From a virus (Duplodnaviria > Heunggongvirae > Uroviricota > Caudoviricetes): a stretch of DNA of 6,899 nt. Both the position numbers and the translations under genes were made by a program. Each line of letters opens with the position of its first letter. Position 1 is the stretch's first letter. A model generated the notes under the pieces. It ran no database searches and had not been told where the DNA came from. It was given only the letters and a program-made list of their open reading frames with translations. Of the stretch, positions 568-4,573 are shown piece by piece. The stretch covers positions 1-6,899 of IMG/VR virus record IMGVR_UViG_2698536369_000004; one strand, given 5' to 3'.

Positions 568-784
568 TAACTATACTCCTTATATAGGTGTTCGCCAACA
601 GATTTTCAATATGACTTGGGCGATTTCTGAACAATAAGCACGATTTAGCAATGATTAATTGATGTTAAGCACAAATATCTCTACATCGTGCATTTTTAAC
701 TATTTATACACATAAAATCTAATAAATGGATATAAACCTTATGATGATTTTTCTCAATCGAATTGAATAATGATCTCTATCACA

Positions 785-1501
<717 letters not shown>

Positions 1502-1917: not shown

Positions 1918-2196
1918 ATGCAACTTACAAGTACTCGCAAGAAAGCGAATGCAATTACAAGCAACATCCTGAATCGAATTGCTGTACGTGGTCAGCGAAA
2001 GGTTGCCGACGCGTTAGGGGTTAATGAATCGCAAATTTCGCGATGGAAAGACAGCTTCATCCCCAAAATGGGAATGCTTCTGGCTGTTCTTGAATGGGGT
2101 GTTGAAGACGAGGAGTTGGCGGAACTGGCTAAGCAAGTAGCCAGAATGCTGACAAAAGAAAAAGCCCCGAAGAACGGCGAATTCTTCGAGGCCTAA
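1918..2196 (+). CDS. cII: CII-like transcriptional activator (92 aa), diverged from lambda CII
   Basis: ATG at 1918 is preceded by the lambda cII initiation region (TAAGGAAATACTTACAT-ATG). The protein (MQLTSTRKKANAITSNILNRIAVRGQRKVADALGVNESQISRWKDSFIPKMGMLLAVLEWGVEDEELAELAKQ...) aligns with lambda CII around the HTH (QISRWK) and LLAVLEWGV, but differs at many positions. Confidence 0.85.
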   Translation: MQLTSTRKKANAITSNILNRIAVRGQRKVADALGVNESQISRWKDSFIPKMGMLLAVLEWGVEDEELAELAKQVARMLTKEKAPKNGEFFEA

Positions 2197-2220
2197 TGTA
2201 GAAAGACTGGATCAATCCAC
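2152..2220 (-). ncRNA. Candidate oop-like antisense RNA overlapping the 3' end of cII
   Basis: Minus-strand intrinsic terminator: stem GCCCCGAAGAA (2164-2174) / TTCTTCGAGGC (2182-2192) with one mismatch, followed on the minus strand by TTTTTCTTTTGT (2163..2152). A minus-strand CATAAT -10 lies at 2233..2228, in the same position relative to the O-type start region as lambda pO. The predicted ~70-nt RNA is comparable to lambda oop (77 nt). Inferred by analogy, not proven. Confidence 0.4.
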
Positions 2221-2230
2221 GGGAGTAATT

Positions 2231-2392
2231 ATGACAAAACGTCGTAAGAAATACCAGGAAAAAGAAGAGATTCGACACCCTGATTCACCTGAAGGATTAG
2301 TGGTAGCCGCAGCAAATAACAGGGCGTTCGCAGAGCGCCTTGTTGGTGTTTACAGACTAGCCAAAGCAGGAGTGAAACATGGGCGTCGTTAA
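2231..2392 (+). CDS. Candidate small ORF (53 aa) between cII and the O-type gene
   Basis: Not in the ORF track (under 60 aa). ATG at 2231 with GGGAG 7 nt upstream; the initiation region resembles the lambda O start (..GGAGTCATT-ATGACAAA..). Translation: [53 protein letters not shown]. Ends at TAA 2390-2392, overlapping the O-type start by 14 nt in another frame. Could instead be a non-coding remnant. Confidence 0.35.
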   Translation: MTKRRKKYQEKEEIRHPDSPEGLVVAAANNRAFAERLVGVYRLAKAGVKHGRR

Positions 2393-3200
2393 GTTAGCTG
2401 ATTACAGGCCTCAACTGGAGGTCGTGGAGCATCGCGTGGCAGATACCGAAGATGGTTTCATGCGCGTTGCTAACGAGATTACCGACAGTCTGCTGATGGC
2501 TGATTTAACCGTCCGGCAGCTGAAGGTGATGCTCGCTATCATGCGCAAGACATACGGATTCAATAAGCCGATGGATCGACTCACAAACACGCAGATAGCA
2601 GCCATGACAGGTATTCATCACACTCATGTTTGCGCTGCCAAGCGCCAGCTTATTGAGCGTAAATTCCTCATTGCTGATGGCGTGAAAATCGGAGTGAACA
2701 AGGTGGTTTCGCAGTGGATTAGCCAGGACAGCTTAACATTAGCTAAAACAGCTAATAAAACATTAGCCAAGTCGGCTAATAGGTATAAGCCAAGTCAGCT
2801 AAACACAAAAGACAATATACAAAAGACAATAAATACAAATACCCCCTTACCCCCTAACGGGGGCGGCGATGGGCAGGTTAAACCTGAACGTCGCAAGGCA
2901 GAACGAATCGACTACGAATCCTTCCTGAACGCCTACAACACCGAAGTCGGTAACAGACTTCCACACGCTGTTGCGGTCAACGAGAAACGCAAACGCCGCC
3001 TGAAGAAAATCATCCCGCAACTAAAAACGCCAAACGTGGACGGTTTCAGAGCGTATGTCAGGGCGTTTGTGCATCAGGCCAAGCCGTTTTACTTCGGAGA
3101 CAACGACACGGGCTGGACGGCTGATTTTGATTACCTGCTGAGAGAAGATTCGTTAACGGGAGTTCGGGAAGGGAAGTTTGCAGACAGGGGGATTGCATGA
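2379..3200 (+). CDS. O: Replication initiation protein, lambda O / P22 gp18 type (273 aa)
   Basis: N-terminal region aligns with lambda O as recalled ([28 protein letters not shown] versus lambda ADLTKRQFKVLLAILRKTYGWNKPMDRI). Contains an internal iteron origin. Stop TGA overlaps the helicase ATG (ATGA at 3197-3200). Confidence 0.92.
2719..2863. repeat. Origin of replication inside the O-type gene: four iterons, AT-rich tract, GC hairpin
   Basis: Four ~18-bp iterons with internal dyad symmetry: TTAGCCAGGACAGCTTAA (2719-2736), TTAGCTAAAACAGCTAAT (2739-2756), TTAGCCAAGTCGGCTAAT (2763-2780), TAAGCCAAGTCAGCTAAA (2786-2803). These are followed by an AT-rich stretch with CAAAAGACAATA repeats (2804-2841) and the palindrome CCCCCTAACGGGGG (2850-2863). 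Same architecture as ori-lambda. Confidence 0.78.
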
Positions 3201-4573
3201 GACAGGATATCGAAGCGAGCGTTATCGGTGGCCTGCTGATTGGTGGATTAACACCAACCGCCAGCGACGTTCTGGCAACGCTGGAGCCGGAAGCGTTTTC
3301 AATTCCGCTCTACCGGAAAGCCTTCGAGGTTATCCGCAAGCAGGCGCGAAACAGAAATTTAATCGACGCGCTGATGGTTGCCGAGGCGTGCGGAGAGGAG
3401 CATTTCACGTCAATCCTGATGACCAGCAAAAACTGCCCGAGTGCCGCAAACCTGAAGGGATATGCCGGAATGGTCGCGGATAACTATCACCGCCGTCTGG
3501 TGCTGGAAATCATGGATGAAATGCGTGAACCAATCCAAAGCGGAACCATCGACGCATCGAGTCAGGCGATGGATGAGCTTGTAAAGCGTCTTTCAGCCAT
3601 CAGAAAGCCCCGTGACGAGGTTAAACCGGTACGCTTAGGGGAAATCATCACTGACTACACCGACACGCTTGACAGGCGTCTGAGGAACGGAGAAGAGTCA
3701 GATACCCTGAAGACCGGAATTGAAGAACTTGACGCCATCACCGGAGGGATGAACGCAGAAGACCTAGTGATTATCGCCGCTCGTCCTGGTATGGGGAAAA
3801 CCGAACTGGCGCTGAAGATTGCCGAAGGCGTGGCAAGCCGCGTTATTCCTGGTTCTGACGTCCGGCGCGGGGTATTGATTTTCTCAATGGAAATGAGCGC
3901 ATTGCAGATTGCAGAGCGAAGCATTGCCAACGCCGGGAGGATGTCGGTTAGCGTACTGCGAAATCCTGCATCGATGGATGACGAAGGCTGGGCGCGTGTT
4001 GCTAACGGCATGAGTCAGCTTGCAGATTTTGATGTATGGGTAGTCGATGCCTCGCGGTTATCGGTCGAAGAAATACGCTCAATCGCAGAACGGCACAAAC
4101 AGGAAAATCCAAACCTGTCACTCATCATGGCGGATTATCTTGGCCTGATTGAGAAGCCGAAAGCAGACCGCAACGACCTCGCAATTGCTCACATCTCCGG
4201 AAGCCTGAAGGCGATGGCGAAAGACCTGAAAACGCCTGTTATCTCCCTGAGTCAGCTTTCGCGCGATGTTGAGAAGCGACCAAACAAACGCCCGACAAAC
4301 GCAGATTTGCGTGATTCAGGAAGCATTGAACAGGACGCAGACTCAATCATCATGATCTATCGGGAAGCGGTATATGACGAGAACAGTAGCGCCGCGCCAT
4401 TTGCTGAAATCATCGTGACGAAAAACCGTTTTGGCTCGCTTGGTACGGTTTACCAGCGGTTCTGCAACGGACACTTTGTTGCATGTGACCAGGATGAGGC
4501 CAGACAGATTTGCACAGCATCAAATGCACCCGCTGCACGTGGAAGACGATATGCACAAGGGGCTGACGTATGA
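3197..4573 (+). CDS. Replicative DNA helicase, DnaB family (458 aa), P22 gp12-like
   Basis: Walker A in [13 protein letters not shown] and a DnaB-like motif [10 protein letters not shown] in a RecA-type C-terminal domain, with a DnaB-like N-terminal domain. Size and position directly after the O-type gene match the P22-type replication module. Confidence 0.93.

Follow-up and report, generated by a model that had tools for sequence, protein, structure and literature searches.

The segment between the cII-like gene and the O-type replication gene of this virus raises two questions. One is whether the 3' end of cII is overlapped by an antisense RNA analogous to lambda oop; the other is whether the 53-codon open reading frame (ORF) that begins at a lambda-O-like start is an unannotated micro-protein gene or the fossil of a recombination junction. 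Throughout, the window means the whole stretch of DNA that was analysed, 6,899 nucleotides long. We consider it very likely that the region comes from a lambdoid phage whose replication module is of the P22/HK97 type, and that it is an ordinary cII-oop-orf-O junction made up of an oop homologue, the gp53 gene and a conserved box that acts as a linker.

According to the ORF list and the Pfam matches, the window is the early-right region of a lambdoid phage. The genes and repeats that frame the junction are as follows.

785-1498, minus strand: cI-type repressor gene
1599-1799: cro
1918..2196, plus strand: cII-like activator gene, 92 aa, of the Sf6 gene 41 / HK620 cII type (Pfam Phage_CII, E 1.7e-42; Sf6 annotation at homologous coordinates)
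2379..3200, plus strand: O-type replication initiator gene of the HK97 gp54 / P22 gp18 type (Pfam Phage_rep_O, E 5.7e-33; BLASTP against lambda O)
2718-2802, within the O-type gene: four 18-nt iterons (repeat analysis)
2805-2832: A+T-rich repeat, which together with the iterons forms a putative ori (repeat analysis)
3197..4573, plus strand: DnaB-like replicative helicase gene of the HK97 gp55 / P22 gp12 type (Pfam DnaB and DnaB_C)

By BLAST, the closest phage records were HK446 and HK544 (98.6-98.9% identity over 1858-2700). Sf6 was 99.5% identical to the window over 1858-2409 and 99.6% over 2140-2400, and HK97 was 99% identical from 2206 rightwards. The window is one more mosaic permutation, in which a lambda-like cI/cro immunity region is joined to an Sf6-type cII and to an HK97-type O gene and helicase. 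The order repressor-cro-cII-gp53-O-helicase was found in every relative examined. The whole arrangement has been described by Hayes et al. 2012 (PLoS One 7:e36498, PMC3349717), and nothing in it is new: oop unit, 33-bp box, boundary sequence and gp53 ORF were all known before. Since the oop unit and gp53 had been described and annotated in related phages, the finding is ordinary, and as its parts are both published and annotated in GenBank, it has little weight as a discovery. What the window does provide is a tidy example of a short DNA segment with five roles at the same time: promoter, 5' end of an RNA, ribosome-binding site, start codon and linker for recombination.

Every feature described in the earlier sequence-only reading was present where it had been placed. 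The left part of the junction, the putative leftward transcription unit, consists of four elements.

2152..2194, minus strand: tO-like intrinsic terminator (stem 2194..2162, T-run TTTTTCTTTTGT at 2163..2152)
2155..2220, minus strand: predicted oop-like antisense RNA of about 63-66 nt (alignment with the 77-nt lambda oop, P22C-oop and BTP1)
2228..2236, minus strand: pO-like extended -10, TGT plus CATAAT (read from the sequence; the bases are those of lambda pO)
2251..2257, minus strand: weak -35-like element, either TGGTAT with a 17-bp spacer (2/6 matches) or CTGGTA with an 18-bp spacer (3/6)

The terminator lies on the leftward strand within the C-terminal coding region of cII. It had been described as a 10-bp stem with one mismatch; the terminator itself was confirmed, but the stem (minus-strand AGGCCTCGAAGAATTCGCCGTTCTTCGGGGCTT) has 13-14 pairs including G-U around a 5-nt loop. 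The hairpin has a dG of -19.5 kcal/mol (z = -5.6 against shuffles), and the terminator of BTP1 is identical to it in the alignment. Per-sequence folds showed a hairpin at this position, with a dG between -14 and -22 kcal/mol and a T-run after it, in 14 of 14 lineages (the window, P22, ES18, Erwinia phage 49, Cronobacter ENT47670, Enterobacter ENT1, six prophage contigs, lambda and HK97). MAFFT followed by RNAalifold on 12 terminator sequences returned no consensus structure, because the MAFFT alignment is a sequence alignment and not a structural one. In its place we used the per-sequence folds together with a stem-indexed pair table. The stem sequences differ among the 14 lineages, with many double (compensatory) changes, so that several Watson-Crick or G-U pair types occur at every stem position. 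Taken together, the comparison gives strong support to a terminator conserved as a structure. The P22 TPA record annotates a feature at the homologous site as 'terminator; oop; similar to phage lambda'.

The predicted RNA would begin at 2220 by homology to the lambda +1, or at 2217 by the P22 RNA-seq read, and would end in the U-run near 2155, overlapping the last 42 nt of cII, codons and stop included (2155-2196). The fold of the whole 84-nt RNA has a dG of -26.9 (z = -3.75). The base-for-base alignment of the window with lambda extends over the -10 and about the first 15 nt of oop RNA. The first 22 nt of its minus strand, read from 2217, are those of the sequenced P22 oop RNA, and from the predicted +1 to the terminator end only 2 of 69 nt differ from BTP1 (97% identity). 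Small-RNA sequencing of P22 infection recovered P22C-oop, GAUUGAUCCAGUCUUUCUACAUCAGGCCUC...GGCUUUUCUUU (PMC13397905). OOP-BTP1 was annotated at the homologous position in the transcriptome study of prophage BTP1 (PMC7067206), whose supplements do not give the OOP coordinates. The P22 TPA record also carries 'promoter; oop; similar to phage lambda' at the homologous site, and the HK633 record annotates lambda oop directly before a gp53 gene. An Rfam search of the window gave no match. This is uninformative, because lambda oop itself gave no match either and Rfam holds no oop family. Judged from the alignments, the predicted leftward RNA is a homologue of the oop RNA of lambda, P22 and BTP1: its position, terminator, -10 and 5' end are all homologous to theirs, which bears out the proposal that it is an oop analogue.

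The comparison with lambda shows what is shared and what is not. Lambda oop lies at 776..700 on the minus strand of L004 and has a -10 that is the reverse complement of ATTATG; the alignment confirmed its 77-nt sequence. In both phages the unit is antisense to the cII 3' end and convergent with pR, its -10 TGTCATAAT overlaps the ATG of the following gene, the RNA 5' end, predicted in the case of the window, falls within the shared 33-bp box 11 nt ahead of this start codon, and an intrinsic terminator sits in the C-terminal codons of cII. The predicted RNA of the window is shorter (about 63-66 nt versus 77), because it lacks a distal 15-nt part of lambda stem-loop I. The terminator stems, with 13 pairs in the window and 8 in lambda, are unrelated in sequence; the -35 is TGGTAT/CTGGTA instead of TTGAGT; and the ATG of the box starts gp53 in the window but O in lambda. 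P22 and BTP1 are closer in layout, with the short oop type and a small ORF at the box ATG before an O-like gene and a DnaB-like helicase. Their small ORF, however, is orf48 (DUF2740), which lies between c1 and gene 18 and belongs to another family than gp53, and their -35 of the orf48 type is TGGTCA where the window has TGGTAT. With HK97 gp53, Sf6 gene 42 and ES18 gp58 (all phrog_1331), together with the Sf6 boundary sequence, there is no difference of substance, and the 14-nt overlap with O described below is the same.

In lambda, oop RNA pairs as an antisense with cII mRNA, leads to RNase III cleavage and biases the phage toward lysis, and pO interferes with pR as a convergent promoter and affects the initiation of replication (PMC12197685, PMC3985674, PMC3349717). 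As far as the work of Krinke and Wulff (1987) is presented in PMC7067206 and PMC12197685, the RNase III-dependent reduction of cII is known for lambda only. By analogy, a leftward transcript in the window would start about 7 nt downstream of the extended -10, at ~2217-2220, and would stop at the intrinsic terminator in the cII 3' end, near 2155. Such an RNA could pair with the last ~42 nt of cII and the intergenic spacer on the pR transcript. Pairing would then lead to RNase III cleavage and less CII, and would push the phage toward lytic growth; the convergent pO might also dampen pR transcription into the replication genes. Both transcription from the window's own version of the promoter and the action of RNase III on its cII are steps that we infer.

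Whether that version of the promoter can be active is the point at which an alternative to the oop reading arises. As had been proposed, the minus-strand CATAAT is found where lambda pO lies, and the alignment puts the two at the same position. The hexamer (2233..2228) overlaps the ATG at 2231 and is preceded by TGT, which makes it an extended -10 of the TGn type. The consensus promoter scan called no promoter at the pO-like site, because the -35 is too weak for the rule of the scan. The oop promoter half might therefore be vestigial in gp53-type phages, with the terminator and the -10 persisting only by way of the conserved box and the cII coding sequence and with little or no oop RNA being made. 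The -35 with its two or three matches out of six and the negative scan fit this possibility, as does the fact that a transcript was detected only in phages with a P22-type -35. Nevertheless, an extended -10 (TGn) lessens the need for a -35 in sigma-70 promoters, which is established knowledge. Moreover, despite drift in both sequences, a -10-like hexamer with A2 and T6 and, 60-80 nt downstream, a strong terminator are retained in each of the diverged gp53 lineages. The hexamer adjoins or covers the start codon in all lineages compared, in the forms CATAAT, TAAAAT, TATAAT, CATACT, TAGAAT, CATTAT and TAAGAT. The distance from CTGGNN to the -10 is 18 nt in 7 of 8 lineages (19 nt in Erwinia phage 49), despite shifts of the ATG by 3-4 nt. 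We therefore regard a vestigial promoter as quite unlikely; the extended -10 and the conserved spacing of CTGGNN, as read from these sequences, argue for activity of the promoter in the window.

Further observations concern this promoter. Part of the -35-like element is CCAGG (plus strand 2254-2258; CCTGG on the minus strand), which is invariant in all gp53 lineages and is kept although the amino acid of codon 8 varies (Y, H, S). The motif CCWGG is the Dcm site, and CCAGG fits it. At this offset the P22 sequence reads TGGTCA, which its record labels as the oop promoter. In lambda pO, a point mutation in the -10 inactivates the promoter (PMC3985674).

The right part of the junction is built around three features.

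2206..2238: conserved 33-bp box holding the oop 5' end, the pO -10, a Shine-Dalgarno sequence and an ATG with the next five bases (exact consensus match)
2231..2392, plus strand: gene for a 53-aa protein of the HK97 gp53 family (phrog_1331, E 1.4e-37, full length)
2379..2392, plus strand: 14-nt overlap ATGGGNCGNCGNTAA, read as ..CAT GGG CGT CGT TAA at the gp53 end and as ATG GGC GTC GTT AA at the O start

The sequence-only reading had likened the Shine-Dalgarno sequence and the ATG at 2231 to the lambda O start. The likeness was borne out by the 33-bp box, which matches the degenerate consensus ACTGGATCNATCNACNGGAGTNATTATGNCAAA with no mismatch, while none of 200 shuffles matched. The lambda O start region and the window share ACTGGATC-ATC-AC-GGAGT-ATTATG-CAAA. 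As published for lambdoid phages (Hayes et al. 2012, PMC3349717), the pO/oop consensus of the box, ACTGGATCaATCcACAGGAGTaATTATGaCAAA, carries the -10 and the RNA 5' end. In the Sf6 record, a misc_feature at coordinates equal to window 2206-2238 is labelled 'bsq5; boundary sequence'. In VT2-Sakai and the PA-series Stx phages, BLAST found similarity to the stretch at 2206-2240 as the sole match. The lambda-O-like start region is thus a known module boundary.

The contents on either side of the box change from phage to phage. A search of viral contigs with protein alignment gave only 100% identical copies of gp53; these were useless for divergence, and we used them for breakpoints. Among the 80 viral contigs with identical gp53, the left breakpoints clustered at ~2196-2197, 2147-2150, 1901 and 1831, and the right breakpoints at ~2410 (41 of 80). 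At least three types of initiator follow the shared first ~10 codons of O. By the breakpoint clusters and the varied initiators, gp53 is a separately reassorting module with two flanking linkers. A box that remains nearly identical among otherwise unrelated lambdoid modules, and that would serve at once as -10, RNA 5' end, Shine-Dalgarno sequence and start codon, serves in consequence as a linker for homologous recombination, and this role accounts for the start of lambda O standing before a different gene here. A lambda/P22 hybrid has a correspondingly hybrid pO, with the -10 of lambda and the -35 of P22 (PMC3349717).

Given this linker role, the box could be kept only as a translation-initiation region and recombination linker; the oop-like features would then be incidental, and the hairpin would have its role in the rightward pR mRNA, for instance as a stabilising element. 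That the box holds a Shine-Dalgarno sequence and a start codon and is a documented module boundary agrees with such a view. It is nevertheless very unlikely. On the plus strand the hairpin has an A-run before it and no U-run after it, so its orientation is that of a leftward terminator. Leftward RNAs with exactly these ends have been sequenced in P22, and relatives in Erwinia and Cronobacter have moved the ATG but kept a -10 hexamer (TATAAT, TAAAAT).

We then come to the ORF that starts in the box. The suggestion that it is unannotated did not hold: the 53-aa protein is 100% identical to HK97 Gp53 and Sf6 gene 42, its family also includes ES18 gp58, epsilon34 gp49 and ST104 ORF27, and the label 'hypothetical protein' is given to it by PGAP in E. 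coli genomes and also in phage records. The 162-nt ORF of HK97 was named by Hayes et al. 2012 (PMC3349717). Residues 1-53 match positions 1-53 of the 53 in the phrog_1331 profile, and the gp53 DNA is present in 582 of 5426 complete E. coli genomes (~11%). A Shine-Dalgarno sequence, GGAG, lies at 2222-2225, 5 nt before the ATG. No disruption of the frame was seen in diverged relatives (62-80% protein identity; Cronobacter, Erwinia, Enterobacter, Citrobacter, Lelliottia and others), where it stays open and insertions or deletions come in multiples of three. In pairwise comparisons the differences fell on codon positions 1/2/3 as 8/4/23, 10/6/28 and 9/3/26, so that third-position changes exceed first-position changes roughly 3-fold and second-position changes about 5-fold. 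In an alignment of 31 sequences, 7 columns were invariant and 15 more nearly so. The kept frame and the third-position excess are the signature of purifying selection on the protein, and by this sequence signature gp53 is a real protein-coding gene. That the frame is instead no gene, but a non-coding spacer or recombination fossil open by chance, would suit its length of 53 codons, the lack of a Pfam, NCBIfam or PDB relative, the small number of representatives and the occasional truncated copies, yet with the Shine-Dalgarno sequence, the frame kept open in all diverged relatives and the conserved columns it is scarcely credible, and the substitution pattern already contradicts it. Overall, the choice between micro-protein and fossil junction was a false one: each half stood, and the either/or did not, as a coding gene lies at a recognised recombination boundary.

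What gp53 might do is less accessible to homology. Sequence searches found no relative in Pfam, NCBIfam or PDB. An exhaustive profile search of 1.84 billion representatives returned only 24 matches, all of them small proteins of the same family, and the literature search on HK97 gp53 returned only unrelated proteins called gp53. The product is basic/acidic, and the AlphaFold2 model (pLDDT 68, moderate confidence) predicts disorder for residues 1-19 and helices at 20-29 and 31-46, consistent with a probably disordered N-terminus followed by two helices. Two assignments were rejected. The 2231 frame is not lambda O or Phage_rep_O, as it has only Met-Thr and part of codon 3, inside the box, in common with lambda O, and the Phage_rep_O domain belongs to the gene at 2379. 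Nor is it P22 orf48 / DUF2740 (PF10872): gp53 has no Pfam match, whereas orf48 scores 98 bits. Homology between the two was rejected beyond the first 12 residues, the only ones aligned by hhalign (probability 0.7%).

The 3' end of gp53 overlaps the replication gene. The 53-codon frame was correctly described as stopping 14 nt into the O-type gene at 2379, whose product does align with lambda O (residue 17 versus 19 onward, 42% identity, E 2e-30 by BLASTP). The 14-nt overlap was found in every relative examined, that is, in four contig sets and in the annotated phage relatives, which makes coupling of O to the translation of gp53 plausible. Ribosomes that reach the end of gp53 in this overlap probably reinitiate on O. 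The O-like gene also has a good Shine-Dalgarno sequence of its own (AGGAG at 2368-2372, 6 nt before the ATG), and the coupling may therefore be dispensable.

The occurrence of small ORFs at the box may also be related to the helicase. Of 84 sampled loci that carry the box, 30 are lambda-P-type modules; in every one of these O starts at the box ATG and a small ORF is absent. All 53 loci with a small ORF (33 gp53, 20 orf48) encode their own DnaB-family helicase, either DnaB-like (42) or a 626-aa Toprim plus DnaB_C fusion (11), and none has lambda P; they include gp53 before an O whose N-domain is 93% identical to that of lambda O. Since the lambda O-P module is effectively one lineage, the association is a lead and not a statistic. 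Tentatively, and with the odds well against it, we suggest that the small genes at the box ATG (gp53, and the unrelated orf48/DUF2740 in P22-type phages) are dedicated accessory factors of lambdoid modules with their own DnaB-family helicase, their first ~12 codons being dual-coded with the pO -35 region. The accessory role may be, for example, to act as an adaptor in helicase loading or to modulate host DnaB/DnaC. The literature search returned no functional study of orf48.

As a separate observation, MTK...YQ(E/D)K and, at one and the same offset, the octamer TACCAGGA are common to gp53 and orf48; this offset is the position of the pO -35. Because of this octamer and the invariant CCAGG, the first ~12 codons seem to be dual-coded with the -35.

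Finally, the distance from pO to the first iteron is ~498 nt in the window and ~359 nt in lambda, which places the putative origin ~140 bp farther away. Insertions of 6-500 bp at that place are nonetheless reported to abolish the replication of lambda plasmids (PMC3985674).

We compared the small gene at the ATG of the 33-bp oop box and its replication partner in a sample of 84 viral contigs that carry the box (loci L105-L224). The features of the window that enter this comparison and the following ones are:

2150-2168, plus strand ACAAAAGAAAAAGCCCC: T-run of the oop terminator and codons of the cII tail
2231-2392: gp53 gene
2252-2259, plus strand TACCAGGA, minus strand TCCTGGTA: conserved element
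2718-2832 region, inside the O-like gene: four 18-nt iterons of the ATTAGCCAAGTCGGCTAA type, spaced 20-24 bp
3197-4573: helicase gene

Overall, the small ORF at the box ATG was gp53 in 33 of these contigs and orf48, the P22-type ORF with DUF2740, in 20. Every one of these small-ORF loci (53 of the 84) also encoded a phage helicase of the DnaB family, which was DnaB-like in 42 and a 626-aa fusion of Toprim and DnaB_C in 11. In the modules with a lambda-P-type loader, O began directly at the box ATG (30/30). Three contig loci (L189, L136 and L166) carried gp53 upstream of an O with an N-domain sharing 93% identity with lambda O, and there the partner was the primase-helicase.

The element at 2252-2259 coincides with the -35 position of pO, the leftward promoter of the oop RNA. 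Its CCAGG, which is also a Dcm site (CCWGG), was unchanged across all diverged gp53 genes, although the amino acid at codon 8 differs. The orf48 family, unrelated to gp53, carried TACCAGGA at the same distance from its ATG. Although the start codon has moved, the element and the -10 hexamer were separated by 18 nt in seven of eight lineages.

At the other end of the predicted antisense RNA, the Lys-rich codons of the cII tail (T-K-E-K-A-P), read in reverse, form the T-run of the terminator. The A-run at 2150-2168 kept its position in all cII variants compared, which argues for a mutual constraint between the oop terminator and the Lys-rich motif at the C-terminus of CII.

Within the O-like gene, an A-rich tandem repeat of 14 nt comes after the four iterons, and together they constitute a putative replication origin; in ES18 and epsilon34, a lambda-like ori is annotated at the matching place. 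From the predicted pO start to the first iteron, the distance is ~498 nt in the window (2220 versus 2718-2802), compared with ~359 nt in lambda (L004, 776 versus 1135).

A second mosaic joint lies at ~2379-2410. At least three different initiator types have in common the gp53 end together with the opening ~10 codons of the O-like gene, and 41 of 80 loci diverged from the window at ~2410.

In two reference records, the ~170-nt gap between cII/c1 and O contains an intact orf48/DUF2740 gene of 48 aa that is left unannotated: VT2-Sakai (NC_000902; L014, locus 726-872) and BTP1 (LT714109; L013, locus 683-829). The BTP1 orf48 is identical to that of P22.
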